From: a virus
Taxonomy: Duplodnaviria > Caudoviricetes
Direction: 5' to 3' (one strand)
DNA: 64,000 bases
Virus record (IMG/VR): IMGVR_UViG_3300037010_001838
The position numbers and the translations under genes were made by a program. The notes below the pieces were generated by a model. The model worked only from the letters and a program-made list of their open reading frames with translations. It ran no database searches and was not told the DNA's origin. Shown in pieces: positions 2,424 through 58,294 of the stretch (positions are counted from its first letter, which is position 1; each line of letters begins with the position of its first letter).

Positions 2424-3515
2424 ATGATTGACGAAGCCCCCGTTGAAAATTCGAATGAATTTAACATTGATGAATTTTATGGTGAAAAACAAATTCGCTG
2501 GTATCAAGTTGCTGCTCGCAATGCAGTGGCAGATGCGGTTGAACGTGGCGTTCAACGTATTCTTGTAGTTCTTCCTACTGGTGCTGGTAAAACAATTACT
2601 ATCGCTGCATCTTTGTCTTTCCCTCGCATACGAAAAGCGTTGGGAGTAGAAGGTGATCGTCCTCTTCGTGTGTTATTCGTCGCCCACAAACATCGCCTGC
2701 TTACTCAAGCAGAACAAACTTTCACGAAAGAAAGTAACGTAGAATTGATCCTTCAATCTATGTTTACGGATATTCCGGAAGATGTTCTAAAAAACGGTTG
2801 GGACGTCGCAGTTCTTGACGAAAGCCATCACGAATCTTGCATGTCTATGCAGTACCAACTTGAAAAGGTTGGTGATAAAGTGATTATTGGTTTGACGGCT
2901 ACACCTGACCGAGCTGATGGTTGTTTGATCAAATTTGAAGAGATCATTGAACCAATCTCTCGTCAACAGGCAGTTGAAGAAGGTTTTCTTGCTCCAACCA
3001 AAATCTATTCATTTGTTGACGCTCCTGAAAAGAATAAAACTCGTGTGGTCAAAGACATTCTCGATGGCTACATCCATCTGATGGGTCAGACAATGGTTTT
3101 CATGAGAACGAAGAAAGAAGCCAGTGAGATTCATCATTATATCCAATCTCTCGGTTACAAGTCTGTTTTCGTTGACAGCCAACCCAGTCATGAGCTTGAC
3201 CAGATCCTCGACGACTTTAGTGCAGGTCAATACAACTTCGTGGTCAACTGTTCACGTATAAGTGAGGGGGTTGATGTTAAAAAATGTGAGAGTGTCCTAC
3301 TAGGACGAACGTTTGCAAGTTACCCCCTTCTAAATCAGGTCATTGGAAGAGCAGCAAGACCTGACAGTGATTGCAGGGTATGGGAAATTATCAATCCGCT
3401 ATCGGGTTATAACTTGGAAACAACAGCGATTGTTGGAGAACCTGAAATCCATGTTCTGTCTTACCGCAAAAACGGCAAGTGGTTTGAAGAGCAGTTCGAT
3501 TACACTACTGTGTAA
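2424..3515 (+). CDS. superfamily 2 DNA helicase (DExH, UvsW/Res-like)
   Basis: Walker A LPTGAGKT, DESHH, LTATPDR, motif VI QVIGRAAR; ATG 2424 follows GGAGAG SD. Confidence 0.9.
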   Translation: MIDEAPVENSNEFNIDEFYGEKQIRWYQVAARNAVADAVERGVQRILVVLPTGAGKTITIAASLSFPRIRKALGVEGDRPLRVLFVAHKHRLLTQAEQTFTKESNVELILQSMFTDIPEDVLKNGWDVAVLDESHHESCMSMQYQLEKVGDKVIIGLTATPDRADGCLIKFEEIIEPISRQQAVEEGFLAPTKIYSFVDAPEKNKTRVVKDILDGYIHLMGQTMVFMRTKKEASEIHHYIQSLGYKSVFVDSQPSHELDQILDDFSAGQYNFVVNCSRISEGVDVKKCESVLLGRTFASYPLLNQVIGRAARPDSDCRVWEIINPLSGYNLETTAIVGEPEIHVLSYRKNGKWFEEQFDYTTV

Positions 3516-3830
3516 AAGTAAACCTGGATTAAACACTCCTGTAGGTATAATGCTTATGGAGCGAAACGAAGAGCAACACTGAAGGTTGGGTTGAAATAAA
3601 CGAAATTCAATCATTATGTGAACTATGCACTCAACTTTCAGTTCAAACAAATACACCATATGGAGTTGACCACATCGAACCACTAAACAGTAATGAAGTG
3701 TGCGGCTTACATTGTATGTCCAATTTACGGATAATACCTCGAACGGAAAACCGCTAAAAAGGTAACAGTCGTGTTGACATTCAGGGTAAAATATGAGACA
3801 ATGTCTCTGTTAAAACGTAAGGAGTAATAA

Positions 3831-4499
3831 ATGTCTCGAATTGGTGATATCCGTGCAGTAATCGTTGCTCATGGTGGTAACCCCAACTTCACGTATTATG
3901 CAGATGGTCCATCTTCCAACATGCGTGGACATAAAGGTACCCGCCCACGAACCAAGAATGTTGTATACAAAATTGAACGATATTCCGATGGACTGACTCA
4001 CAAAAAACGGGAAAAATGTATTCCTGATTTGATGAAAATTCCTGGTGTTGAAAAGGTCTACATTTCCAAACAACTCAAGCCAGCATATACCGACTATATG
4101 GTTGGTGGACACTTGAAAATTGTATTCAGTAGTGTTGCATCAGTAATTCCAAAAAGTGCTCCAAATATTCCAGTGGTCACTCCTACTGTCATGCCAACGC
4201 AAACAACTAGTGACCTCTCGAACTTTGTAAAAGTGTTTGGAACATTCAAAGCTGAATCTGCTTTTGCAAAATTCGCGATTGAAATGATGGCAGAATCTGT
4301 TGTTTTGATGTGCGAAGATGACCCAACTCAACCAATCCCTAACTCACAAGATGTGGCAAATATGGCAAAGGACTACGCAAACGATATAATAGAAGATTTT
4401 CGTGTTGGTGTTCTTGAACAGATTGATGAACTAATTCTCGAAAATCCAGTGAAATTCGAAGCAAAACGAACAATCAAGATGCACATTAATTTCGACTAA
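3831..4499 (+). CDS. hypothetical protein
   Basis: 222-aa ORF with AAGGAG SD and upstream TTGACA-17-GACAAT promoter (3774-3802). Confidence 0.75.
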   Translation: MSRIGDIRAVIVAHGGNPNFTYYADGPSSNMRGHKGTRPRTKNVVYKIERYSDGLTHKKREKCIPDLMKIPGVEKVYISKQLKPAYTDYMVGGHLKIVFSSVASVIPKSAPNIPVVTPTVMPTQTTSDLSNFVKVFGTFKAESAFAKFAIEMMAESVVLMCEDDPTQPIPNSQDVANMAKDYANDIIEDFRVGVLEQIDELILENPVKFEAKRTIKMHINFD

Positions 4500-10721: not shown

Positions 10722-10894
10722 GTTTTGGAACGACATTGATCCGAATTTAACGTTGATTTCCTTGGAAAAATGCGAGATAATGATAGGTTATAGTTTGGAA
10801 CTGGACGACCCTATTACAAACTATAAAAAGGGTAACCGAATCGTTTGTTGACTTTACCCTAATACCCCTCCCCTTTTCAAACCAAAACCAAATA

Positions 10895-14909: not shown

Positions 14910-15656
14910 TCAAACCTCCACTATGAAGTTTGGATTAAACAATACACTTTCATTTCCATATCCCCTTTGGTTTGAAATAATTCGCGTTTTCCCAATCATT
15001 CCATCAAAATTGCTGTGAGTGTGTCCATAGAACCATATACCTTCCCAACCCATAAACTCCTCCATGTTTTCAGTGAAATATGAATTTAAAACATTCGAGC
15101 CATATTTCGGGTCCACGGTTATGGGGTGAGGAGCAAAATGAGAAATTACAACTCGTTTCTGCCCTTCAGTTTCTTTAATCCAATGAGCCAATTCCCGACG
15201 AAAGATTTCATGTTGTTCGATATGGTTTTGTGTTTTCCAAAGAATACGAGGGTCATCCGATACCCGAATTAAAATAAAATCATTGATTCCCCGTTCCACC
15301 TGAAGTCGGGCCAATGCGTCTGTGGTTCCATTCAATGTGAATTGAGTAAACATTGTTCCGCCAAAGAAGTTAATATCATCAATCTTCGTTGAAGAGTTAT
15401 TGAGAAAATGAAAGTTCGGAAACTTGGTTTCTAATTCTGTGTGATAAGAAATAACATCATCCACCAAAGAATGGTAAAATTCATGGTTCCCTATTACACA
15501 CAAAATTTTAACACTAGAAGGAATTTGAATTAAAAACTTATCAAGTCGATTCCTAGTATGTATATCACCAGACAGAATGAGTACATCTTCTCCGTCGTAA
15601 GAATACTTCATATCATATCCTTCAAGGTGGAGGTCTGACAATTGTTTAATTTTCAT
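14910..15656 (-). CDS. calcineurin-like metallophosphoesterase
   Basis: SDLH, GDI, GNHEFY, SHFAP, GHTH motifs. Confidence 0.9.
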   Translation of the reverse strand: MKIKQLSDLHLEGYDMKYSYDGEDVLILSGDIHTRNRLDKFLIQIPSSVKILCVIGNHEFYHSLVDDVISYHTELETKFPNFHFLNNSSTKIDDINFFGGTMFTQFTLNGTTDALARLQVERGINDFILIRVSDDPRILWKTQNHIEQHEIFRRELAHWIKETEGQKRVVISHFAPHPITVDPKYGSNVLNSYFTENMEEFMGWEGIWFYGHTHSNFDGMIGKTRIISNQRGYGNESVLFNPNFIVEV

Positions 15657-21824: not shown

Positions 21825-22322
21825 ATGAAATTGAATGAAATCACAGAAACTCAACCTGAGATGGTTATGTTGGTAGGACTTCCTGGTTCAGGCAAATCCA
21901 CATATATCGCTCAGTTAAAAAAACATAAGAATTATGTTGTTATCTCAACAGATGATATTTTGGAACAAATTGCGAAAGACTCTGGTATTAGTTATTCGGA
22001 TGCTTTCAACAGTTATTACAAAGAATCAGAAAAGAAAATGTTTATACAGTTGAAACAAGCTATCAACAAAAAACAGAATATTATTATTGACCAAACGAAC
22101 ATGACAGTTGGGTCTCGTAGTCGGAAGTTGGGACTTGTTCCAAACAGTTATACGAAGATTGCTGTGGTGTTTAGTGTGGATTCAGCAGAACTTCAGCGTC
22201 GATTGGATAATAGAGAAAAAGAAACTGGAAAACGTATTCCTTCTTCCGTAATCAAGAGTATGAGAGAAGCATACCAAGAGCCAACAAAAAGCGAAGGTTT
22301 TGCGGAAATTATTAAAGTTTAA
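21825..22322 (+). CDS. P-loop kinase (AAA_33 / polynucleotide kinase-like)
   Basis: GLPGSGKST, ISTDD, IIDQTN, R..R. Confidence 0.85.
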   Translation: MKLNEITETQPEMVMLVGLPGSGKSTYIAQLKKHKNYVVISTDDILEQIAKDSGISYSDAFNSYYKESEKKMFIQLKQAINKKQNIIIDQTNMTVGSRSRKLGLVPNSYTKIAVVFSVDSAELQRRLDNREKETGKRIPSSVIKSMREAYQEPTKSEGFAEIIKV

Positions 22323-22327
22323 AATAT

Positions 22328-22540
22328 TTAATTTGAAACTGTTAGAAGAGCGGGGCACCACTCAGGTGCTCTATCTCTTTCATACCAACAATTTGAAATT
22401 ATTTTATTGTTAACTCCACAGACTACTTGTATTCCTCGGTCATATTCTTCTGGCGTATTACAGTAGTAATCAGTTATTAATTGAGTACATCCTTTACAGT
22501 GATATGTAATTGTCATTGATGGTCCAAAATTGTTTTCCAT
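22328..22540 (-). CDS. hypothetical Cys-rich protein
   Basis: Coupled to guaC stop (TAATG). Confidence 0.55.
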   Translation of the reverse strand: MENNFGPSMTITYHCKGCTQLITDYYCNTPEEYDRGIQVVCGVNNKIISNCWYERDRAPEWCPALLTVSN

Positions 22541-24798
22541 TATCTCACCTTTGTTGTTATGTCTTCATACACCCGATTGTGAGTGTTATTCACTCTAATA
22601 AACGTTGCACGTTTTGAAAGTTCCTTTAGTGTTTTACTTCCTGTATATGTACACGTACTCCGAACCCCACCTAGAATATGGTTAATTGTATCTTTAACTG
22701 GTCCTCGATATGGAAGTTCGATTGTTCGTCCTTCACTCGAGCGATATTCAGCCAAACCCCCACTGTGAGCTTCCATTGCTGTAGATGAACTCATCCCGTA
22801 GAATTGGACAAACTTACGCTCTACTTCCAAACACTCAAGAGAAGAACCATCAATATCTTTTATAACTTCGTTAGTTTTATACCACTTCGAACTTACTTCA
22901 CCTCCACCTTCGTCGTGTCCAGCGAACATTCCACCACTCATTACAAAATCAGCGCCACCTGCAAATGCTTTTGCAAAGTCTCCAGGAGTATTACATCCCC
23001 CATCGGAACACAACCTTCCGCCTAATCCATGAACAGCATCAGCACATTCTATAATTGCACTCAATTGGGGAAAACCAATTCCAGACACTAACCTTGTGGT
23101 ACAAACTGAATTGTGAACAATCATGTTGTTTGCAATGAAACTGTGGGTTGGGTGATCAATTTCCAAATCGTAGACGGGAACCTCACACTCTGTTGGGTTT
23201 TCAATTTCAAGTATTTTTATAACCTGATAATGTGAAAGATGTCTTTTTTTGTGAGAGGTCGCCAGAAAACTTCGATATCCATCTTTTCGGGGGTGTTGCA
23301 TAGGATATGAAGACCGTTTCCCGTTGTTTGACATATTTGGGAAACTCCCAAATATATTAAACGTAATCCAGCTGAATAGTTCCATGAGTTGTTGTGACGT
23401 GTTGTTAAAATTAACCTGGCCTTCTTTTGTAATGTGGCCGTCACTATCAACTAATCCATCATACAATCCCCGCAAATATTCTGTGTTGGTGCACATGAAT
23501 TGGTCTGGAAGATGTTTTTCATGGAACTTTCCAAACTGTTGGAAAAATTCTTCCCACTGTTTACTATACAAGGTGATCGTGGTCAACGTTTTCCGTTTAT
23601 TAGAACATACTGGGATTTTACCCGTAACCATCTCAACAGCAGACATTAATTTAACTACATGATGTTGATCTCTTGAGTTTATATACCACTCAACACCTTC
23701 AGAAAAACTTGAAAATCCCCTGCTGTTGGTTCCTTTTGTTTTTCTTGAAGTACCATCTCCAAGAAAAAAACCAAACACATAACCAGTGTTGTAATCAGAT
23801 TTAACAATAGTGTTATAATTATCCAAATGCTCTTCTCGTATAAAATAACTTGAAATATCGATATGAAAACTATCTGGTGTTTCCCAATTAATATTGATGG
23901 GAAGTAAAGCTACATCTTGTCGTATTTCACTCACCGGTTTCCATTTTATTTTTTCCTCTCCCAAACGAGTAGGAACCTCCAGCGCCTTTTTATACCCTTT
24001 GCTTTGTAGTGTTGTAATACTAATAGAATTTAGATCACCTACGTAACAATGATGGTCAGGAGTTAGTCTCAACGGAATGTTGAAGTGATCATGTTTTATC
24101 TGTGTTGTTTTCTTATATCCTGTGGTATAAGCGGATAACACAGTTGCTGGTTCTCCAGTACTCGTAATTATACGATCCCCAGGTTGAACATCTTTGATAT
24201 TTTTATAAACACCACTGGACATTAAAATTCGAGCATCACCCGTTAAACACCCACTGCCTACTCCAACCTTGATGATATCTGCACCAGATAATACTAATTG
24301 TTCTGCCATTTCAGGTGTAACAACGTTACCAACAAGAAGAGTTGTGTTTGGATATTTGTCTCGTAATTTAGTTACAGTAGATACAAAAGTTTCTGTATAC
24401 CCATTAGCAACGTCAACACACACATTTAAAGGAGGTCTGCCAAACATTTCGATGAAGTGTTCAAGCTTATCGAGGTCACTTTGAGACGTTCCAACTGAAT
24501 AAAAAATATATTGTTCAAATGAGGGATTGTTTTTATAAAAATCTACAAGTTGAACTACTGGATAATGTTTATGTAATGCTACCATCATTTTAAATTCAGC
24601 AAATCGTTCCGCCATTTCAAAAGTTCCAACTCCATCCATATTTGACGCTATAATTGGAATACCAGTCCATTGTTGGTGAGAGTATTTGAATGTGAACGAC
24701 CTTTCAAGAGACACGTCTTTGCGTGAAGTTAGTGATGACCTTTTTGGAATAAGTAGCACATCACCAAAATCCAATTTAACATCCTCTACTATTCTCAT
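22540..24798 (-). CDS. guaC: GMP reductase containing an intein
   Basis: KLDFGDVLLIPKRS, IIASNMDGVG, VDVANGY, KVGVGSG|SVCTTR, FAGGADFVMSGGMFAG, FYGMSS. Confidence 0.92.
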   Translation of the reverse strand: MRIVEDVKLDFGDVLLIPKRSSLTSRKDVSLERSFTFKYSHQQWTGIPIIASNMDGVGTFEMAERFAEFKMMVALHKHYPVVQLVDFYKNNPSFEQYIFYSVGTSQSDLDKLEHFIEMFGRPPLNVCVDVANGYTETFVSTVTKLRDKYPNTTLLVGNVVTPEMAEQLVLSGADIIKVGVGSGCLTGDARILMSSGVYKNIKDVQPGDRIITSTGEPATVLSAYTTGYKKTTQIKHDHFNIPLRLTPDHHCYVGDLNSISITTLQSKGYKKALEVPTRLGEEKIKWKPVSEIRQDVALLPININWETPDSFHIDISSYFIREEHLDNYNTIVKSDYNTGYVFGFFLGDGTSRKTKGTNSRGFSSFSEGVEWYINSRDQHHVVKLMSAVEMVTGKIPVCSNKRKTLTTITLYSKQWEEFFQQFGKFHEKHLPDQFMCTNTEYLRGLYDGLVDSDGHITKEGQVNFNNTSQQLMELFSWITFNIFGSFPNMSNNGKRSSYPMQHPRKDGYRSFLATSHKKRHLSHYQVIKILEIENPTECEVPVYDLEIDHPTHSFIANNMIVHNSVCTTRLVSGIGFPQLSAIIECADAVHGLGGRLCSDGGCNTPGDFAKAFAGGADFVMSGGMFAGHDEGGGEVSSKWYKTNEVIKDIDGSSLECLEVERKFVQFYGMSSSTAMEAHSGGLAEYRSSEGRTIELPYRGPVKDTINHILGGVRSTCTYTGSKTLKELSKRATFIRVNNTHNRVYEDITTKVR
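23110..24249 (-). mobile_element. 380-aa intein with LAGLIDADG homing endonuclease
   Basis: Begins CLTGD, ends IVHN followed by Ser; internal FGFFLGDG and LYDGLVDSDG motifs. Confidence 0.92.
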
Positions 24799-26839: not shown

Positions 26840-27116
26840 AGAAAACACAATTTGGAAACGTCGTACGAACCTTGATACACATGAAAGAGAATTACGAAAA
26901 GGGTGGATGTACCAATATCACAATACACCTGAATATAAACAATATCAACAGGATATGAAATCTCTCCAAGAAGAATGTGGAAAACTTGGACATGTTCGTG
27001 GGAAGTTTTGGGATAATGGGTTGGGAACAACTTGGTATTATTGTGCCCACTGTGGAGCAACTTTTGATATCGAAAAGTATGATTTGGGTTTATCAGACGC
27101 GGAGGAAGATGAATGA
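26829..27116 (+). CDS. hypothetical Zn-finger protein
   Basis: C..GH and CAHC motifs. Confidence 0.6.
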   Translation: MMSEENTIWKRRTNLDTHERELRKGWMYQYHNTPEYKQYQQDMKSLQEECGKLGHVRGKFWDNGLGTTWYYCAHCGATFDIEKYDLGLSDAEEDE

Positions 27117-27289
27117 CATTTATCAATCTCTCGACTAAGAAAACCCCCAGATGCTTCAGCACCGGGGGTGAACTACCCGATTGCTAAAACAATTGGGTAG
27201 TTCACATGATATCATTGAACAATTAATCGATAATAACACGGAATGTCAGAAATTTGTTGGTGGTATTTCTGATGGAATAGAATGATTCG

Positions 27290-27318
27290 TTGACTTTTAT
27301 AAATAAGTCATATATACT
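27290..27318 (+). promoter_or_regulatory. tRNA-operon promoter 1
   Basis: TTGACT-17-TATACT, identical 29 nt at 50045 and 63401; contains TATAAATA and TGACTT/AAGTCA inverted repeat. Confidence 0.9.
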
Positions 27319-27354
27319 TATAACACTGAATTAATTACTTAAAGGATTTACAAA

Positions 27355-27450
27355 ATGAACACAAACGGATTAGGTTATTGTCTATCACTCGGGTCTTTAT
27401 CCATATTGGATAAGAGCCAGGTCGCCGTTTGGGGAATTACCAAGATGTAA
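27355..27450 (+). CDS. leader (attenuator) peptide 1, MNTNGLGYCLSLGSLSILDKSQVAVWGITKM
   Basis: AAAGGA SD; 31 codons between promoter and terminator; codons 5-18 are only Gly/Leu/Tyr/Cys/Ser/Ile. Confidence 0.8.
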   Translation: MNTNGLGYCLSLGSLSILDKSQVAVWGITKM

Positions 27451-27469
27451 AGAGAAAAAATCCCAAAAG

Positions 27470-27500
27470 AAAGCCTGGCTCGAAAGACCCAGGCTTTTTT
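27470..27500 (+). terminator. attenuator terminator 1
   Basis: AAAGCCTGG...CCAGGCTTT plus T-tract; 5' arm also pairs with GAGCCAGGT (27414-27422). Confidence 0.9.
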
Positions 27501-27506
27501 GTTGTA

Positions 27507-27526
27507 AACTGTTATTTAAAAATTTG
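27507..27526 (+). promoter_or_regulatory. boxA-like antitermination site 1
   Basis: AACTGTTATTTAAAAATTTG, conserved at 50308 and 63748, resembles rrn boxA TGCTCTTTAACAATTT. Confidence 0.6.
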
Positions 27527-27536
27527 AAATATTTTG

Positions 27537-27655
27537 GGGCATGCGGCGAAGTTGGAGAGTCGCGGCGGACTGACTAGAGAGCATTGGTTTTCCAGTGTTC
27601 TCGACTAAATCCGTTCCCTCGTGGTGAGTAGGTTCGATTCCTACCATGCCCACCA
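27537..27655 (+). tRNA. tRNA-Tyr(GTA) with 33-nt insertion in the anticodon
   Basis: GGGCATG/CATGCCC-A-CCA; GCGGA-CTG|insert 27573-27605|TAAA-TCCGT; long variable arm; GGTTCGATTCC. Confidence 0.8.
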
Positions 27656-27661
27656 ATTTAT

Positions 27662-27747
27662 GCGCTAGTGCCGGAGTAGACGAACGGAACTGCCTGCAAA
27701 GCAGATGGTGAAAGCCCACGTGGGTGCAAATCCTACCTAGCGTTCCA
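27662..27747 (+). tRNA. tRNA-Cys(GCA), long variable arm
   Basis: CTGC-CTGCAAA-GCAG arm; U73; CCA. Confidence 0.85.
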
Positions 27748-27754
27748 AAATAAA

Positions 27755-27844
27755 GGGGAGTGAAATAAGGCTAGGTGGTCCTGGCGCAGGGTTGTAGCTC
27801 CTGTCCCTCGTGGCAAGAAGTTCGATTCTGTCCTCTCCCCACCA
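27755..27844 (+). tRNA. atypical tRNA, GTA anticodon (Tyr-like)
   Basis: CAGGG-TTGTAGC-TCCTG; GGGGAG/CTCCCC-A-CCA; weak T-stem. Confidence 0.5.
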
Positions 27845-27853
27845 AAATTTAAT

Positions 27854-27930
27854 ACCCTTCTACGCTAATTGGTAACGCGGCAACGCTTAGAACGTTGTGG
27901 TTCTCAGTTCGAATCTGAGGTTGGGTACCA
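27854..27930 (+). tRNA. tRNA-Leu(TAG), short variable arm
   Basis: CAACG-CTTAGAA-CGTTG; CTCAG-TTCGAAT-CTGAG; CCA; two acceptor mismatches. Confidence 0.75.
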
Positions 27931-28061
27931 AGTTTGTCCTGTTGTGTGTTGTTTGGAACAATCGCTTTGTTGGTGGTATCTGGCTATTCAAACGAACCAT
28001 AATTCGATACACAAGAAAACAGTTAGAACGTACATTTATAAAGATTAAAACATGATAAATT

Positions 28062-28144
28062 GCCCTGGTGACAAATGCAAATTGGTACAGCTACTGCGCT
28101 AAGAACGCAGGTTTTTACGGGTTCGACTCCCGTCTGGGGCACCA
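28062..28144 (+). tRNA. tRNA-Leu(AAG)
   Basis: CTGCG-CTAAGAA-CGCAG; GCCCTGG/CTGGGGC-A-CCA. Confidence 0.85.
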
Positions 28145-28152
28145 AAAATATT

Positions 28153-28248
28153 ACCGTATCATTCCAGTAGGTGCTGGTAAGAATCCATAAGAGTTGTACT
28201 TGGAGTCCAGGTGCAACACAGGCAGAGCGTGACTGCAATACGGTTCCA
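28153..28248 (+). ncRNA. tRNA-like RNA ending in TCCA
   Basis: Terminal 7-bp stem ACCGTAT/ATACGGT plus TCCA; internal hairpins; no canonical T-loop. Confidence 0.45.
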
Positions 28249-28257
28249 AAATTTAAT

Positions 28258-28330
28258 GCGGGTTGTCAAGTGGTGTACGTTTGGCCTTCCAAGCCGAAAG
28301 AGGTGAGTTCGAATCTCATAGCCCGCTCCA
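28258..28330 (+). tRNA. tRNA-Gly(TCC)
   Basis: TTGGC-CTTCCAA-GCCGA; GCGGGTT/AGCCCGC-T-CCA. Confidence 0.9.
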
Positions 28331-28339
28331 AAATATTAT

Positions 28340-28441
28340 GGCGCAGATAGGTGTAGTTGAAACAGCACTGTGGGAGATTCCTCGAGGCGTAGCTCCCATT
28401 CCTCTGGATAAGTGGGTTAAATTCCCATCCTGTGGCCACCA
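28340..28441 (+). tRNA. tRNA-like gene with enlarged 16-nt anticodon loop, isotype unclear
   Basis: GGGAG/CTCCC stem around ATTCCTCGAGGCGTAG; GTGGG-TTAAATT-CCCAT; ACCA. Confidence 0.5.
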
Positions 28442-28509
28442 AACACGTTTGTCTCATTAATCTATATGACAAGGTGAGCGAGGGTTTGAATCCCTCTTTG
28501 GATACTAGT

Positions 28510-28594
28510 CGGCAAGTGGCTTAGGTAAATTGGTACAGCCCCTGGATTTAAGTTCCAGTGCTCTTGGTTGGGTTCGAATCCCCCTTGCCGACCA
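28510..28594 (+). tRNA. tRNA-Leu(TAA), short variable arm
   Basis: CTGGA-TTTAAGT-TCCAG; CGGCAAG/CTTGCCG-A-CCA. Confidence 0.75.
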
Positions 28595-28600
28595 AATATT

Positions 28601-28691
28601 GGAGAGTAGCGTCCATGGTGGACAAACTGCCTAGAAAGCAGTCGCCGGCATCTAAGTAGAGCCGCTGGTTCGATTCCTGTACTCTCCGCCA
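28601..28691 (+). tRNA. tRNA-Ser(AGA)
   Basis: ACTGC-CTAGAAA-GCAGT; long variable arm; G73; CCA. Confidence 0.85.
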
Positions 28692-28696
28692 CATTT

Positions 28697-28780
28697 CCGC
28701 AGGTGGCTTAGGTAAATTGGTACAGCCCCTATCTTCAAACGGTAGTGCTTTTGTGGGTTCGAATCCCTCCCTGCGGACCA
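28697..28780 (+). tRNA. tRNA-Leu(CAA), short variable arm
   Basis: CTATC-TTCAAAC-GGTAG; paralogue of 28510; CCA. Confidence 0.75.
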
Positions 28781-28792
28781 GACAGTTAAATT

Positions 28793-28876
28793 GCCCCCGG
28801 TGACAAATGCAAATTGGTACAGCTACTGCGCTAAGAACACAGGTTTTTACGGGTTTGACTCCCGTCTGGGGCACCA
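28793..28876 (+). tRNA. tRNA-Leu(AAG), degenerate duplicate
   Basis: Near copy of 28062-28144 with anticodon-stem mismatch and T-loop TTTGACT. Confidence 0.6.
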
Positions 28877-28881
28877 AAATT

Positions 28882-28970
28882 ACGAGTGTGGTGTAATTAG
28901 GTAGATGTAACAGGCTTAAACCCTGCCTGCCTGCCGAAAGGTCGTACCGGTTCGAATCCGGTCACTCGGA
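28882..28970 (+). tRNA. tRNA-Leu(TAA), class II, no encoded CCA
   Basis: CAGG-CTTAAAC-CCTG; long variable arm; ACCGG-TTCGAAT-CCGGT. Confidence 0.8.
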
Positions 28971-29029
28971 CTTTTGTTGATATTTTCGTCATTTTAATAT
29001 ATCATTTAATATATGATGAGAGACTAAAA

Positions 29030-29533
29030 ATGAACAGACATTATCAGAATTATCTTTTTAAGAAGTATCCTGCTCTATATAAAGAACACACTCTTCCGAT
29101 GAGTGAAACTTGTATGTGTTGGGGGGTTACTTGTGGAGATGGTTGGTTTAATCTTATTAATCAATTGTCTGAATTTTTGTGCAGCGATTGGATCTATGAG
29201 AAATACACATACGATCGTATGGTGACTAACCTTGGTCAACTTTTGTATCCAGGTAGTCCTGAAAGTGATTTTAACCCTATTATCACAACTGAGTTGATTG
29301 CCGCAGTCAAAGTAAGGATGGATGATGCAGAACTTTCGATTCCTGTTGCTCGGCAAGTGAAAGAAAAATTTGGAACTCTTCGGTTTTATGTTTCTAACGC
29401 AACTGAAGAACAATATTCAGCAATTCAGTTTGCTGAATATCAAAGTAAAATGATTTGTGAAGTGTGTGGTGCACGAGGAACTGTGGGTGGCCGGGGTTGG
29501 ATTTCAACTCGGTGTATTAAACACAGAAAGTGA
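29030..29533 (+). CDS. conserved phage hypothetical protein
   Basis: CGDGWFNLI...QVKEKFGTLRFY...CEVCG motif. Confidence 0.8.
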   Translation: MNRHYQNYLFKKYPALYKEHTLPMSETCMCWGVTCGDGWFNLINQLSEFLCSDWIYEKYTYDRMVTNLGQLLYPGSPESDFNPIITTELIAAVKVRMDDAELSIPVARQVKEKFGTLRFYVSNATEEQYSAIQFAEYQSKMICEVCGARGTVGGRGWISTRCIKHRK

Positions 29534-29538
29534 TATAT

Positions 29539-29629
29539 GGAAGGTAGTGTCTATGGCAGACAAACTGTTTTGAAAGCAGTCGCCGGCATCTAAGTAGAGC
29601 CGCTGGTTCGATTCCTGTACCTTCCGCCA
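29539..29629 (+). tRNA. tRNA-Ser(TGA)
   Basis: ACTGT-TTTGAAA-GCAGT; variable and T arms identical to 28601; G73 CCA. Confidence 0.85.
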
Positions 29630-29648
29630 GTTTTAAAGTTTTAAATTT

Positions 29649-29733
29649 GTCTCGGTGCAGGGAATTGGTAGACTGAATTGTTTCAAAAACAATTGACCGA
29701 AAGGTGGGAGTTCGAGTCTCCCTCGAGACACCA
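29649..29733 (+). tRNA. tRNA-Leu(CAA)
   Basis: ATTGT-TTCAAAA-ACAAT; long variable arm; CCA. Confidence 0.9.
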
Positions 29734-29741
29734 AACAAATT

Positions 29742-29834
29742 GGTCCTGTAGTTTAAAGAAAACAAGATGATTTATAAACATCCAAGGTCCTAGATGAGGG
29801 CAAGTAGTGGGAGCGTTACCCACCAGGACTACCA
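29742..29834 (+). tRNA. atypical tRNA-Ile(TAT)
   Basis: GGTCCTG/CAGGACT-A-CCA; GATG-A-TTTATAA-A-CATC; long variable region; T-loop AGCGTTA. Confidence 0.55.
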
Positions 29835-29837
29835 AAT

Positions 29838-29960
29838 TGTTGTGTGAGGGGGATTGGTATACCCCGGCGGTGGAATCATAGTGGGGAGCTCTGTGAAAAC
29901 AGACTAAAATAGTAACCCTTCCAGTAGCTTGTGTAGGTTCGAGTCCTACCACAACAACCA
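29838..29960 (+). tRNA. tRNA-like gene with structured insertion in anticodon arm
   Basis: TGTTGTG/CACAACA-A-CCA; D-arm; GTAGG-TTCGAGT-CCTAC; about 43 nt between TGGAA/TTCCA. Confidence 0.55.
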
Positions 29961-30176
29961 ATTGTTGACTTTTACTCTCCATTAGTGTAAAGTATCTTTA
30001 CTTTAAATGTTTGTTGATAAGGTGAACTGTGTCGGAACGTGATTATAAAGAACTTCGAAAAATCGCAAACCAGTTTGTTGATTACAACCTAATACAGTGT
30101 TGCGCAGAACTTGCAGCTATAAGTAACAGGACAGGGGGGAAAACCCCGTTCTTTTGGACTTAAATTAAAAACAGGA

Positions 30177-30709: not shown

Positions 30710-31068
30710 ATGTTGTTATAGGAACTATATCAAGAAGATTCGAGCATTATTCGCTCTGAAGGAAATGATTATAGTGTTAATAAATTATTATGAATAATTA
30801 AAAACGTCAAGCCCCAAGAGTTTGAAGTATCTGATTTAATTTGGATTCCCCATACACTAAAACAGAAAAACAGCGAACAATCAAGGCAGATACTTCACAT
30901 CCTATAATTGTTATCAAATCGAGAGGTAAATTGGTAGTATTAGATGGGGTTCATAGACTAGTTAAATCAGTTCAACAACACAAAAAACAAATATTGGGCA
31001 AATTAATTACACAGGACCAACTCAATAAAGCCAAAAATATAAATACCCTTTTTGGAGTTATTGTATGA
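30710..31068 (+). pseudogene. disrupted ParB-like (VLDGVHRL) gene
   Basis: ATG 30710 frame contains TAG (30719) and TGA, then a frameshift near 30850 into the ORF with VVLDGVHRLVK. Confidence 0.6.
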
Positions 31069-31694
31069 AATTTCTATTTGGGCTTCTTTTAGTTTCTTCT
31101 TTCGCGTTTGCAGACTGTCCTCAACTATACCCAGATCATAAACCTTTTAACATTCCTAATACTACTGAACTTTGTAATAGTTTTTACGTATCGGATTATG
31201 ACACTATCAACCACAAGGTAATTGCTGTATCAGAATTATTGAAACACAATTTCCCAGTAGGGTCAGTAAAACGAACAAACAATTTTCATTCTGATGATAG
31301 GGTTGGTTCTGTTCCTAACAACCGCCAATATTTAAAAACACATTATGACAAAGGTCATATGGCACCTGCTGATGATGCATCTTCTTTAGAAGAAATGAAA
31401 GAAACTTTTTTGTTGACAAATATGACTCCACAATCTCCAACTTTAAATAGAGTTGAGTGGAAGTTACTAGAAGAAAAAGTAAGAGGTATTTTTGATTCTT
31501 CAAAAACAGATGTTTATGTTGTAACGATAGCAGTATACGAAAACAAACAAACAATTAATGGTCTTCCAATTCCGTCTGGATATTGGAAAATTGTGTATGC
31601 TGATAACTCTCAATACTTTTTTTATGCTGATAATAATGATGACGCAGTTGTTGTTCAACGTGGTTCAGTTGCATTACCCTCTTTATTTAAATAG
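31065..31694 (+). CDS. DNA/RNA non-specific endonuclease (Serratia Nuc family) with signal peptide
   Basis: YDKGHMAPA, NMTPQSPTLNR..W. Confidence 0.9.
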   Translation: MKFLFGLLLVSSFAFADCPQLYPDHKPFNIPNTTELCNSFYVSDYDTINHKVIAVSELLKHNFPVGSVKRTNNFHSDDRVGSVPNNRQYLKTHYDKGHMAPADDASSLEEMKETFLLTNMTPQSPTLNRVEWKLLEEKVRGIFDSSKTDVYVVTIAVYENKQTINGLPIPSGYWKIVYADNSQYFFYADNNDDAVVVQRGSVALPSLFK

Positions 31695-35364: not shown

Positions 35365-35436
35365 GCTCAATTGGCTTAATGGTAAAGCAGGTGCTTCTAA
35401 AACACTTGACCGTCGGTTCGATTCCGACATTGGGCA
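35365..35436 (+). tRNA. amber suppressor tRNA (anticodon CTA)
   Basis: GCTCAAT/ATTGGGC-A; canonical D and T arms; GGTGC-TTCTAAA-ACACT puts CTA at 35397-35399. Confidence 0.75.
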
Positions 35437-35443
35437 CCGAGAA

Positions 35444-38129: not shown

Positions 38130-39632
38130 GTGAGCAAAGAATTTGTGGATGCCCTTTCTATTACAACCAATGTAGCGCACACGGAAAATGGTGCTGTTGC
38201 ATTTGATACAACCAAATCAGCTATGTTGGATTTGTTTGCACAAGGGGGTGCACTCCGCAATCGTGCTGATGATGAAATTCTTCGTTTGTTTTCAAAAGCT
38301 TATGCAGAAAATGCATTGTTTGCCACTCGTGCTATGTTCTATTTCAGGGACGCTCGTGGTGGTCAAGGTGAACGCGATACATTTAGAAAGCAATTAAAGT
38401 GGTTGATTAACGTTAACCCTGACGCTGTCCGTAAAAACATTAAACTTATTCCATACTTTGGACGTTGGGATGATTTGTATGTGTTATTTGATACAGAACT
38501 TGAAACAGATGCAATTACACTAATCTTTACACAGATTGCCGAAGACACGGCATCTGAACATCCCTCGTTGCTTGCAAAATGGTTGAAAAGTGAAAACGCT
38601 TCTTCAAAAGAAACGAAACGACTTGCAACAAAAACTCGTATAGGTCTTAAATTAAGTTCCAAAGCATATCGCTTGATGTTGAGCACTCTTCGTAAGAAAA
38701 TTAACATCGTTGAACGGTTGGTGTCTGCCAATCAGTGGGATAGTATTGAATACAGTGCCGTTCCTTCTCAAGCTAACTTGTTATATGGGAAAGCTTTCTT
38801 CACGCATGACGCTGAACGCCGTAAGAAATTCTTGGATTCTTTAAAGACTGGCGAAAAGAAAATCAATGCGAGTGTTCTTTTTCCATATGAAATCGTCCAT
38901 AAAGCACTTACGGTGGGCAGGAACACACCACAACACGAACGCCAACTCATAGATGCGTTGTGGGACGCTCTTCCAAACTATATTGGAGATAAACAAGAAA
39001 ATGCTCTTGCTGTAGTTGATGTGTCTGGTTCTATGGCTGGTCTTCCATTGGAAGTTGCTATTTCGGTTGGAATGTATTTGGCTGAACGTAACACTTGTGA
39101 AGCTTATCATAACAAGTTCATTACTTTTAGCTCTACACCTCAACTACTTAAAATTCAGGGAGCTGACCTTGTTGAAAAAATAGCTAATATGAATAGTTCT
39201 GCATGGGAAATGAATACAGATATTCAAGCTGTGTTCCGTTTGATTCTTACTGTTGCCAAACAAAACAAGTTAGCACAATCTGAATTACCACAGAAGTTGT
39301 ATATCATTTCTGATATGGAATTTGATGCCGCTATAAGCAACGCTAGATATTCTTATAAGAATCAATGTCGGGGTGTGGTTGACGAAAAATTTTTCCAAAC
39401 AATTTCTAAAGAATTTAGTGAGTGTGGATATACAATGCCCAATTTGGTGTTTTGGAATGTTGATGCTCGGAACCAACAGTTTCCAATGAGTATGGATGAG
39501 CGTGGTTTTCAAATGGTTAGTGGATGTAGTCCGTCTATCTTTAAGCACACAATAGGTGGAGAATTTATGTCTGCTTATGATTTGATGCTTGATGTTATTA
39601 ACAGTGAACGTTATCAACTCGTTACAATTTAA
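38130..39632 (+). CDS. DUF2828 / TROVE-like vWA domain protein (Ro60-related)
   Basis: TENGA, RDARGGQGER, GRWDDL, AKWLKSE, MIDAS VVDVSGSM, FITFS, ISDMEFD, LVFWNV. Confidence 0.85.
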   Translation: MSKEFVDALSITTNVAHTENGAVAFDTTKSAMLDLFAQGGALRNRADDEILRLFSKAYAENALFATRAMFYFRDARGGQGERDTFRKQLKWLINVNPDAVRKNIKLIPYFGRWDDLYVLFDTELETDAITLIFTQIAEDTASEHPSLLAKWLKSENASSKETKRLATKTRIGLKLSSKAYRLMLSTLRKKINIVERLVSANQWDSIEYSAVPSQANLLYGKAFFTHDAERRKKFLDSLKTGEKKINASVLFPYEIVHKALTVGRNTPQHERQLIDALWDALPNYIGDKQENALAVVDVSGSMAGLPLEVAISVGMYLAERNTCEAYHNKFITFSSTPQLLKIQGADLVEKIANMNSSAWEMNTDIQAVFRLILTVAKQNKLAQSELPQKLYIISDMEFDAAISNARYSYKNQCRGVVDEKFFQTISKEFSECGYTMPNLVFWNVDARNQQFPMSMDERGFQMVSGCSPSIFKHTIGGEFMSAYDLMLDVINSERYQLVTI

Positions 39633-40089: not shown

Positions 40090-40177
40090 GGAAGTATGCC
40101 AGAGCGGCTTATTGGCGCTGCCTTGAAAGCAGATGGTCCGAAAGGGCACGTGGGTTCAAATCCTACTACTTCCGCCA
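40090..40177 (+). tRNA. tRNA-Ser(TGA)
   Basis: CTGC-CTTGAAA-GCAG, long variable arm, G73 CCA. Confidence 0.9.
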
Positions 40178-40383: not shown

Positions 40384-41172
40384 ATGAAATTTCTTATTCA
40401 ACACAATTTAATGGATAAAGAACAACTTCAGTTAACAAAAGCTGCTGTTGAACAATACCCACATGAATTTGTTGGATTAATTCCTTTCTCTCGAGAAATA
40501 ACTTCAACCGAACCATTAACAGGAACCAAATACATTCCTTATGGTTCAACACTATTAACAAACCTTGCTTATGAATTAAAATGGGAAGGTCTCTATTTTG
40601 ATTTAGCTAAATTCAATTACGAAGCTGCTGCATCCAACCGTGACGATATGATGAATGCACAGTTCATTAAACCATTGAACGTGACGATTGAGTTTTTACA
40701 CACGAGACCAGATAACGAACTTTGGTTTATTCGTCCTTCAGAAGATCTGAAACAATTTTCTGGACAAATTATTGAAGCGAAAGAATGTAGAGAATGGCTC
40801 AAAGATGCAATGGAATGTGACATGTCTGGTACTTATAAAATGGAACCGGAAACGATGATTGTTCTTGCTGAACCACAGACGATTCAAGCTGAATGGCGTT
40901 GGTTTGTTGTTGGAGGGGAAATTGTTGACGGTTCCATGTACCGTGCAAATGGACAATTAATTAAAAATCATGAAACGGAAACTGGCGTTATAAAAGAAGC
41001 ACAAAAATTCGCCGATAAATGGGTACCAAGTCCGTGTTGTGTTATGGACACAGCTCTTGTCGATGACAAAATAAAGGTTATAGAATTTAACTGTATTAAC
41101 TCATCAGGTTTTTACAATCATAACGTATCAAAAATATTTTCAGCCTTATATGATTACTCAATCAATCGTTGA
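40384..41172 (+). CDS. ATP-grasp domain protein (DUF4343-like)
   Basis: WFIRPSEDLKQFSG, EWRWFVVGGEIV, VMDTA, IEFNCINSSGFY. Confidence 0.8.
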   Translation: MKFLIQHNLMDKEQLQLTKAAVEQYPHEFVGLIPFSREITSTEPLTGTKYIPYGSTLLTNLAYELKWEGLYFDLAKFNYEAAASNRDDMMNAQFIKPLNVTIEFLHTRPDNELWFIRPSEDLKQFSGQIIEAKECREWLKDAMECDMSGTYKMEPETMIVLAEPQTIQAEWRWFVVGGEIVDGSMYRANGQLIKNHETETGVIKEAQKFADKWVPSPCCVMDTALVDDKIKVIEFNCINSSGFYNHNVSKIFSALYDYSINR

Positions 41173-50602: not shown

Positions 50603-50605
50603 AAT

Positions 50606-50653
50606 GGGTGATTCGGGTGGCTAAGGCGGGTTCGATTCCCGTATGCTCCACCA
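50606..50653 (+). tRNA. truncated tRNA (T-arm plus CCA only)
   Basis: GCGGG-TTCGATT-CCCGT-ATGCTCC-ACCA in 48 nt. Confidence 0.45.
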
Positions 50654-50685
50654 AAAGAACTTTTAAATGTTGAAGTTCTTTTAAT

Positions 50686-50744
50686 GGGGGCATGATGGTT
50701 GCTGCCGACGGGCAAGACGAGTTCGATTCTCGTATCGTCCACCA
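50686..50744 (+). tRNA. truncated tRNA lacking D-arm
   Basis: ACGAG-TTCGATT-CTCGT-ATCGTCC-ACCA in 59 nt. Confidence 0.45.
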
Positions 50745-50793
50745 AAGTTTGTAAACCAAAGTTTGTAATTAGAGTGTGCTAAAACTAAAAAAT

Positions 50794-50880
50794 GCACGGG
50801 AAGTCAGATGGATTGGACACCACCCTTTCAAGGTGGCAGGTGAAAACCGTTTGCGGGTTCGAGTCCCGTTCCGTGCTCCA
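50794..50880 (+). tRNA. tRNA-Glu(TTC) with long variable arm
   Basis: CCACC-CTTTCAA-GGTGG; 16-nt variable region; CCA. Confidence 0.85.
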
Positions 50881-55395: not shown

Positions 55396-55510
55396 GTTGT
55401 TGTATATCAGTTGGTTAGAGATAACGTCTGCTCGAGGGTGTAGCCCCCGGTAAAGGACCGCAACGCTGCAGATAAAACGTTCGCCGATGGTTCGAGTCCA
55501 TCCAACAACA
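55396..55510 (+). tRNA. tRNA with about 42-nt insertion in the anticodon loop (CTG|TAAA gives GTA; isotype uncertain)
   Basis: GTTGTTG/CAACAAC-A; AACGT/ACGTT stem; GATGG-TTCGAGT-CCATC; insert 55431-55472. Confidence 0.7.
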
Positions 55511-55519
55511 CTAGATTTT

Positions 55520-57331: not shown

Positions 57332-58294
57332 GTGTCTCTTTCAAATGTTAAGATTTTCGCTGGAAATTCAAATATTGAATTCGCCACAAAGATAGCAAGT
57401 AGGATGGGGTTAGCACTCGGTAAGGCTAAAGTAAGTAAGTTCAAAGACGGTGAAACATCTGTTGAAATTGAAGAGTCGGTTAGAGGAAGTGTTGTATTTG
57501 TTATTCAGTCAACGTGCAATCCTGTTAACGACAATTTAATGGAATTATTGACAATGACAGACGCATTAAGAAGAGCTGCTGCAAAACGCATTATTGCAGT
57601 TGTTCCTTATTATGGATATTCCAGACAAGATAGGCGTCCAGGATTTAGCCGTGGACCAATTACTTCCCGTCTTGTAGCAGATGTGATTCAAGCAGCTGGT
57701 ATTGACCATTTAGTATCGGTTGATATTCATTCTCTTCAACAACAAGGGTTTTTTACGATTCCCTTTACTAACATTTCCGCTTCCGTTGAATTCATTAAAG
57801 ATATCAGAATGATGTATCGTAAAGAAAAAGAAGAAAAAACACTTATGGTTGTTTCTCCTGATATCGGTGGAGTATTACGTTCTAGACAAATTGCAGAACA
57901 GTTAAACGGTGACACTCAATTAGCTATTGTGGATAAACGTCGCCCACGAGCTGGTGAATCAGAAGTTATGAACATCATCGGTGACGTAGAGGGAAAAGTT
58001 TGTATTATGGTTGATGATATTGTAGATACAGCTGGAACTTTATGTAAGGCTGCGAAATCTTTAAAGGACCATGGTGCTCTTAAAGTTGTTGCTTATGCCA
58101 CTCACCCTGTATTATCAGATAATGCTTACGAGAATTTAACTCATTCAGTGTTAGACGAATTAGTAGTAACAGATACAATTCCACTAATAGGCAATGTTCC
58201 AAATAACATCAGACAATTATCAATTAGTGATTTGGTTGCAGAAACTATACGAAGAATGAGGTCCAAGCAGTCTGTTAGTCAAATATATGTTTAA
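57332..58294 (+). CDS. prs: ribose-phosphate pyrophosphokinase
   Basis: FKDGETSVEI, YGYSRQDRR, DIHS, VSPDIGGV, VDDIVDTAGTL, THPVLS. Confidence 0.96.
   Translation: MSLSNVKIFAGNSNIEFATKIASRMGLALGKAKVSKFKDGETSVEIEESVRGSVVFVIQSTCNPVNDNLMELLTMTDALRRAAAKRIIAVVPYYGYSRQDRRPGFSRGPITSRLVADVIQAAGIDHLVSVDIHSLQQQGFFTIPFTNISASVEFIKDIRMMYRKEKEEKTLMVVSPDIGGVLRSRQIAEQLNGDTQLAIVDKRRPRAGESEVMNIIGDVEGKVCIMVDDIVDTAGTLCKAAKSLKDHGALKVVAYATHPVLSDNAYENLTHSVLDELVVTDTIPLIGNVPNNIRQLSISDLVAETIRRMRSKQSVSQIYV

Follow-up and report, generated by a model that had tools for sequence, protein, structure and literature searches.

Introns in the tRNA genes of bacteria and of their viruses are thought, to our knowledge, to be self-splicing (group I) only. 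Group I introns are ~200 nt or longer, contain a P3–P8 core, follow a U that ends the 5′ exon and close with a terminal G; that of cyanobacterial tRNA-Leu(UAA) sits between positions 34 and 35. Protein-catalyzed tRNA splicing is regarded as an archaeal and eukaryotic trait, with the introns cut by EndA/TSEN and the exons joined by RtcB or Trl1, and we know of no protein machinery for tRNA splicing in bacteria. Phage T4 uses a related chemistry for repair, in which Pnkp and Rnl1 reseal tRNA-Lys cut by PrrC, Rnl1 being a ligase that reseals breaks in anticodon loops. In the Lak megaphages, “enigmatic introns” have been described in several tRNAs, including Tyr(GTA), together with the statement that phage tRNA introns had been unreported before (Devoto et al. 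2019, PMC6784885). Our literature search found no paper on hairpin-type inserts in the tRNAs of T4-like phages. Here we describe what appears to be a T4-like giant phage of a bacterium in which a hairpin mini-intron of 33 nt, incapable of self-splicing, would separate G34 from U35 in a tRNA-Tyr(GUA) gene.

The window, by which we mean the whole 64,000-nt stretch analyzed, is AT-rich phage DNA in which standard ARAGORN finds 25 tRNA genes, none of them at 27537–27655. It maps onto positions 10794–74794 of the IMG/VR contig 3300035181_001013 (hereafter G001; 178.8 kb, estimated 52% complete), to which it is ~98% identical. The major capsid protein of G001 is of the T4 gp23 type (E 1e-96), and we therefore count G001 as a T4-like phage. 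The phage uses the standard genetic code: reading TAG as sense does not lengthen the long ORFs, and TAG is the rarest stop. The window also contains an IMPDH/GMP-reductase-like gene split by an intein that includes a LAGLIDADG endonuclease domain (22540–24798, −), an R2K-clade ATP-grasp protein (40384–41172, +) and a ribose-phosphate pyrophosphokinase (57332–58294, +). In addition, a Ro60/TROVE-like protein with DUF2828 and DUF7788 domains is encoded at 38130–39632 (+; phrog_850 “RNA-binding protein,” E 5e-136), and ~450 nt downstream of its gene lies a tRNA-Ser-like gene (40090–40177, +); a Y-RNA-type partner may be located in the vicinity.

When introns are allowed, ARAGORN calls a tRNA-Tyr(gta) with a 33-nt insert at 27537–27655; without introns it makes no tRNA call at these positions, and the unspliced gene gives no match to the Rfam tRNA model. 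The minimum-energy fold of the complete gene (RNAfold) is a cloverleaf. The 5′ exon (27537–27572, +), delimited by ARAGORN and BLASTN, contains the acceptor 5′ strand GGGCATG, the D-arm, the anticodon-stem strand GCGGA (27565–27569) and C32, U33, and G34. The 3′ exon (27606–27655, +) opens with U35, A36, A37, and A38, followed by the anticodon-stem 3′ strand TCCGT (27610–27614), a long variable arm, the T-arm GTAGG/CCTAC, the acceptor 3′ strand CATGCCC, A73 and an encoded CCA. The anticodon stem is thus a 5-bp helix, GCGGA/UCCGU, and all stems of the body are intact (ARAGORN, RNAfold). When 27573–27605 are deleted in silico, what remains is a canonical class II tRNA-Tyr of 86 nt, with the long arm, A73, G1-C72 pair, GUA anticodon, 7-nt loop, U33, and A37 that characterize the bacterial molecule.

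Homology places the interruption at the same point. In a BLASTN comparison with 50,697 phage records, the gene matched annotated tRNA-Tyr genes only, and did so in two pieces: bases 7–36 of the gene share 96.7% identity with Streptomyces-phage tRNA-Tyr genes, the match stopping at G34, while bases 70–119 share 88% identity with the tRNA-Tyr of Alishewanella phage Slicko01, the match beginning at U35. Full-length alignment with the uninterrupted 86-nt Slicko01 tRNA-Tyr requires a single 33-column gap, between G34 and T35. Both acceptor strands have changed relative to Slicko01 with pairing kept (GGGCATG/CATGCCC vs. GGATATG/CATATCC). Since these differences still pair and the exons are homologous to annotated tRNA-Tyr genes, the body looks like that of a working tRNA. 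The original prediction, which had proposed an otherwise canonical class II tRNA-Tyr with a 33-nt insert at 27573–27605 between G34 and U35, is therefore upheld on both counts: the interrupted gene is a genuine phage tRNA-Tyr gene body, and the predicted coordinates and hairpin sequence are exact by ARAGORN call, alignment and fold.

The insert (27573–27605, +), defined by the gap relative to Slicko01 and by the ARAGORN intron call, has the form ACTA-hairpin-GAC. The hairpin itself (27577–27602, +) consists of an 11-bp stem, GAGAGCATTGG/CCAGTGTTCTC, with nine Watson–Crick and two G-U pairs, closed by a TTTT loop at 27588–27591; as RNA it reads GAGAGCAUUGG-UUUU-CCAGUGUUCUC. In the predicted fold of the precursor, the anticodon stem opens into a symmetric 7×7 internal loop (5′ CUGACUA, 3′ GACUAAA) that is capped by this hairpin, whose pairs have probabilities of 0.99–1.0 within the full precursor. 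The insert by itself has a predicted folding energy of −16.9 kcal/mol (z = −6.3), which none of 200 shuffles matched (RNAfold). Both of the non-Watson–Crick pairs are G-U in the tRNA sense, and the antisense strand consequently folds at only −8.2 kcal/mol compared with −16.9 for the sense strand, which points to a structure at the level of RNA rather than a DNA palindrome. The insert is single copy within the window and within the 179 kb of G001, and on this ground we rejected a repeat or MITE as its origin.

A search of 27000–30000 against Rfam returned no intron family at E ≤ 1. A group I intron is ruled out, as the insert is 33 nt long with no Rfam match, the 5′ exon closes with G where a U would be needed, and the last base of the insert is C where a G would be needed. 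A group II intron is likewise excluded by the 33-nt length and the lack of an Rfam match, as the six-domain ribozyme including domain V takes up several hundred nucleotides. The earlier assertion that the insert falls far below the size of a self-splicing group I or II intron thus stands. A BHB motif, in which a 4-bp central helix separates two 3-nt bulges and either bulge lies on the 3′ side of that helix in its strand, was also rejected: the canonical topology would set CUGA against GACU in the central helix, with zero Watson–Crick pairs, while an apparent 3-4-3 reading with bulges CUG and GAC and the helix ACUA/UAAA has the mirror topology and only two pairs. On paper, if RNase P and RNase Z trimmed the transcript at the base of the hairpin, the remaining loop would have 13 nt rather than 7. 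RNase III products carry a 2-nt 3′ overhang; again on paper, the cuts that would give a 7-nt loop lack this overhang, and the GUA product would need a 1-nt 5′ overhang. The insert is too small for self-splicing, and hence it is cut out and the exons rejoined by proteins, or the transcript is an unspliced tRNA look-alike, or the gene is dead. We tentatively prefer protein-dependent splicing to tRNA-Tyr(GUA), to which we assign a probability of roughly 40%.

The register of such an excision is formally ambiguous, as it could give GUA or, after a one-base shift, CUA. If the ancestral loop is assumed to be CTGTAAA, the boundaries of the insert are unique, because the insert begins with A and ends with C. 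Removal of 27572–27604 instead gives an equally good cloverleaf, with the loop CUCUAAA and the anticodon CUA, which ARAGORN even ranks marginally first. In this register excision would occur after U33 and before C, as would result from a cut behind the second base of each putative 3-nt bulge, and the product would be tRNA-Tyr(CUA), a supF-like amber suppressor; the insert would then end in A, where group I introns have a terminal G. However, the homologous tRNA-Tyr genes have G34, and one insertion event explains the GUA product without an additional substitution, whereas the bulges to which the CUA cuts would correspond belong to the reading with the wrong topology for a BHB motif. Recoding of TAG as a motive for a CUA product is ruled out by the standard code described above, and a separate tRNA(CUA) already exists at 35365–35438. 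Homology thus favors GUA, and we consider a suppressor product very improbable. The gene at 35365–35438 (+) is of note in its own right, as it has an amber-suppressor anticodon though the phage shows no TAG recoding.

The interrupted tRNA-Tyr is the first member of a tRNA array and is preceded by a putative sigma-70-like promoter (27290–27318, +; TTGACT-17-TATACT), identified by consensus match only (10 of 12 positions). Uninterrupted tRNA genes for 19 amino acids are present in G001; Tyr is represented only by the interrupted gene and by a noncanonical, Sec-like gene with a GUA anticodon. The latter (27757–27846, +) has G37, a Sec-like long acceptor and a 6-bp D-stem, and scores 21 bits against the Rfam tRNA-Sec model, which is below threshold. 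Another Tyr-like RNA at 28339–28443 (+), whose 16-nt loop includes the palindrome CCUCGAGG, has the sequence …GUAGC(U/C)CC in common with it.

Scanning for pairs of T-arms and acceptor strands revealed further tRNA bodies in the window, the one at 28339–28443 among them, whose acceptor and T stems pair perfectly and whose expansion is limited to the anticodon region. One of these (55396–55511, +; identical in G001) has 7/7 acceptor and 5/5 T-stem pairs, a 38-nt anticodon “loop” and no encoded CCA. Removal of 42 nt (55431–55472) converts it to a canonical 74-nt class I cloverleaf with the loop CTGTAAA, called as tRNA(gta), so that its interruption may fall at the CUG|UAAA junction that is also split in the tRNA-Tyr gene. 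The parse is ambiguous, as the best-scoring ARAGORN solutions are a class II Ser(cga) or Leu(gag) with inserts of 29–31 nt, and the insert has no significant fold. Another, the last gene of the first array (29838–29960, +), has a perfect acceptor stem, an encoded CCA and ~40 extra nt in the anticodon region. Its T-stem is the same as that of the tRNA-Tyr gene and its T-loop differs by one base; the extra sequence contains the hairpin CUCUGU-GAAA-ACAGA followed by GACUAAA, the heptamer that is also found at the 3′ junction of the Tyr insert. We found no clean anticodon parse for this gene, and BLAST searches of both bodies against phages gave no informative homologues.

Other unusual tRNA-like features are present as well. 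At 50603–50745 (+) there are two short elements, separated by a strong AU-rich hairpin, that terminate with a T-arm, a 7-nt 3′ acceptor strand and ACCA but have no full tRNA body. Several tRNAs whose anticodons are of class I (Cys, Lys, Glu, Ile, and Asn) reach 84–87 nt owing to stem-loop variable arms; they lie at 27662–27747, 28697–28780, and 50794–50880 of the window and at 75691–75775 and 80482–80567 of G001.

Excision by proteins would require enzymes that cut, seal and, if necessary, heal. G001 encodes a full-length homologue of T4 RNA ligase 1 (2886–4109, −), ~7 kb upstream of the point at which the window starts in this relative. Residues 35–381 align to T4 Rnl1 structures with E values of about 1e-63 (7e-63 to 2c5u), and the protein has the tRNA-specific C-terminal domain PF20819 (8e-19). 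A second RNA ligase of G001 is of the Naegleria type (NgrRnl, Rnl5; E 1e-80). The window contains a P-loop kinase of the polynucleotide/tRNA-kinase type (21825–22322, +; Pfam AAA_33, 2e-26), for which Pnkp1 is the best PDB match (4xrp, 1.4e-11), followed by PSTK and mammalian PNKP; its best NCBIfam matches are PNK-3′Pase, PSTK, and bacterial Pnkp, all below the cut-offs. This PNK-like kinase stands alone, and no PNK3P domain was found in G001; a calcineurin-type metallophosphoesterase is encoded at 14910–15656 of the window. Possibly the kinase is an end-healing enzyme. Judged by homology, the sealing half of a cut-and-join pathway is present. As for the cutting half, no RtcB, EndA-type splicing endonuclease (PF01974) or RNase III was found in the 179 kb of G001 (~52% complete), in a search whose EndA and RtcB controls matched in archaea. 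The original prediction had held that an endonuclease and a ligase are needed, or else that the insert may mask the anticodon until activation, and had proposed a search for RtcB, RNA ligase and splicing endonuclease genes; of this, the ligase part was realized twice over, alongside the PNK-like kinase, while RtcB, the endonuclease and a BHB motif for it to recognize were not found. Moreover, Rnl1, PNK, and phosphoesterase form the standard tRNA repair kit of T4-like phages, and their presence is thus not specific.

Two further genes near the array were noted. A Serratia-type DNA/RNA nonspecific endonuclease is encoded at 31065–31694 (+), 1.1 kb downstream of the first array. Within the array, 29030–29533 (+) encodes a 167-aa zinc-ribbon protein that belongs to no Pfam, PHROG or NCBIfam family and has 4197 homologues, most of them on phage contigs; in one relative (L178) its homologue adjoins a PNK-like kinase and a phosphoesterase. 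As a nuclease candidate this protein was rejected: its AlphaFold model is confident (pLDDT 91) and has no PDB fold match, and its neighbors in AFDB are unnamed or DksA-type zinc fingers.

From the anatomy of the gene and the enzymes encoded beside it, we infer the following pathway to tRNA-Tyr(GUA). The interrupted gene would be transcribed as the first member of the array and its ends trimmed normally. A protein endonuclease would cut the 7×7 internal loop on both strands, on the 3′ side of G34 and the 5′ side of U35; where necessary, the phage PNK-like kinase and a phosphoesterase would heal the ends, and the T4-Rnl1-type phage ligase would join the exons into an 86-nt tRNA-Tyr with the loop CUGUAAA. 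Splicing is favored because the exons are homologous up to G34 and from U35, removal gives a canonical tRNA and the hairpin is far more stable than expected by chance; because Tyr is otherwise represented in G001 only by the Sec-like gene; because the ligases, the PNK-like kinase and the metallophosphoesterase are encoded; because other tRNAs of the window expand only in the anticodon loop, one of them readable as a CUG|UAAA split; and because the Lak megaphage tRNA introns, including that in Tyr(GTA), provide a precedent (PMC6784885). It is disfavored because EndA, RtcB, and RNase III were not found in G001, there is no BHB helix and the geometries of trimming and of RNase III do not fit, and also because searches for other carriers, described below, yielded no diverged insert-bearing homologue.

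The tRNA-Tyr gene with its insert is identical in G001, and among the differences listed for the main strain contigs of four mat/sediment metagenomes none falls within 27537–27655. Since the strains differ by only ~1.3% in this region, ~1.5 changes are expected in 119 nt and the conservation is uninformative. The question of whether the insert is conserved in relatives, raised with the original prediction, thus has a divided answer: it is, in G001 and, among the differences listed, in the strain contigs, but at ~98% identity the invariance says little. A more divergent and less abundant relative, seen in two of the four runs, aligns to the leader and to tRNA-Cys and not across 27529–27654. When the exact hairpin was searched in IMG/VR, the 98% relative was the sole match. 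Gapped anticodon-arm patterns gave chance matches only in IMG/VR and the JGI metagenomes, with no further interrupted tRNA among them according to ARAGORN; none of 80 phage loci sharing the 167-aa gene (of its 4197 homologues) had another tRNA-Tyr; synteny via the neighboring nonspecific endonuclease led to the same contig only; and a word scan with tRNA-Cys found only unrelated phages. With no diverged carrier found, there is no covariation for the hairpin. Runs labeled as RNA contain 0.05–0.08 of the sampled words of the stretch, and none of the runs listed as containing the stretch is recorded as RNA.

This distribution suits an account in which a short palindrome was inserted into a once-functional tRNA-Tyr gene, whose nonfunctional transcript has not decayed while the host supplies tRNA-Tyr. 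The insert was seen only in a 98%-identical strain cluster in which so few changes are expected, the alignment of the more divergent co-occurring relative does not extend across the gene, and the pattern scans of IMG/VR and the JGI metagenomes gave no other carrier. Loop remnants summing to 7 nt would be automatic after a recent insertion, and no splicing machinery is known to us in bacteria or was found in G001. Such an inactivated gene would not, however, be expected to have every body stem intact and CCA encoded, and random decay does not predict several tRNAs of the same phage that are expanded only in the anticodon loop. The hairpin is optimized in the RNA sense strand, and the insert is not repeated in 179 kb, which also argue against inactivation. 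We consider this account unlikely, if one to be taken seriously.

A set of tRNA bodies with remodeled anticodon arms, as carried by this phage, is also what might be seen if the hairpin were kept and the RNA did no decoding. Such an unspliced look-alike would serve as a decoy or sponge, capturing host defense nucleases directed at tRNA, or tRNA-binding factors, that recognize the tRNA-Tyr body and the anticodon stem, or would be a nuclease-proof reserve form. The intact body, A73, and CCA agree with this, as does the fact that tRNA-Tyr is a documented target of an anti-phage nuclease, the PtuAB of retron-Eco7 (PMC11555353); AriB of PARIS targets tRNA Lys, Thr, and Asn (PMC12409363), and phage tRNAs are reported to evade anti-phage nucleases by changes in the anticodon loop (PMC10264068). 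By this analogy, a role in conflict over the anticodon loop is plausible. Yet a decoy has no need of loop remnants that restore exactly CUGUAAA, anticodon nucleases and TyrRS lose much of their recognition site once G34 and U35 are separated, and no diverged homologues were found. We accordingly rate the look-alike as distinctly unlikely, below inactivation. Splicing, our preferred reading, could be combined with nuclease evasion in a more general model, which we offer with little confidence: T4-like giant phages would practice protein-dependent tRNA splicing, with hairpin mini-introns placed in the anticodons of nuclease-attacked tRNAs (Tyr here), giving nuclease-proof pro-tRNAs that would be matured by an endonuclease, the PNK-like kinase and Rnl1.

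The locus offers a small, cleanly defined substrate for asking whether protein tRNA splicing exists in bacterial systems. If the RNA is unspliced, it would amount to a novel type of tRNA mimic within the contest of phage and host nucleases over tRNA. In either case, functional-looking phage tRNA genes are being missed by standard tRNA finders.

Comparison with the described systems shows partial likeness to each. The insert resembles the group I tRNA introns, exemplified by that of cyanobacterial tRNA-Leu(UAA), in lying in the anticodon loop at the 34/35 bond, and differs from them in its length of 33 nt, in the G that ends its 5′ exon and in its own final C. With the protein-spliced introns of archaea and eukaryotes it shares a length of tens of nucleotides, a noncatalytic nature and a location in or near the anticodon; these introns, however, have a BHB motif and the 37/38 position, whereas the phage insert is at 34/35 of a bacterial class II tRNA-Tyr with G1-C72. 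Like T4 tRNA repair, the proposed pathway would take place in a T4-like phage with a full Rnl1 homologue and a PNK-like kinase and would make its join in the anticodon loop; but T4 repair reseals one host-inflicted nick with nothing removed, while excision of the insert would take two cuts and discard 33 nt. The Lak introns (PMC6784885) also lie in the anticodon loop, belong to no recognized self-splicing class and are identical among related strains. The insert described here is similarly a nonribozyme insert in the anticodon loop of a phage tRNA, conserved in this case among ~98%-identical strains only. The Lak Tyr insert is 93 nt long and was placed at the canonical 37/38 site by a eukaryote-mode predictor, and a tRNA shape is predicted for at least one Lak insert (PMC6784885); in contrast, the present insert has 33 nt at 34/35 and forms a plain hairpin, in a T4-like phage with the standard code. 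We thus view it as a new variant of a barely described group, the phage tRNA inserts, for which the Lak megaphages provide the only precedent that we found in the literature.
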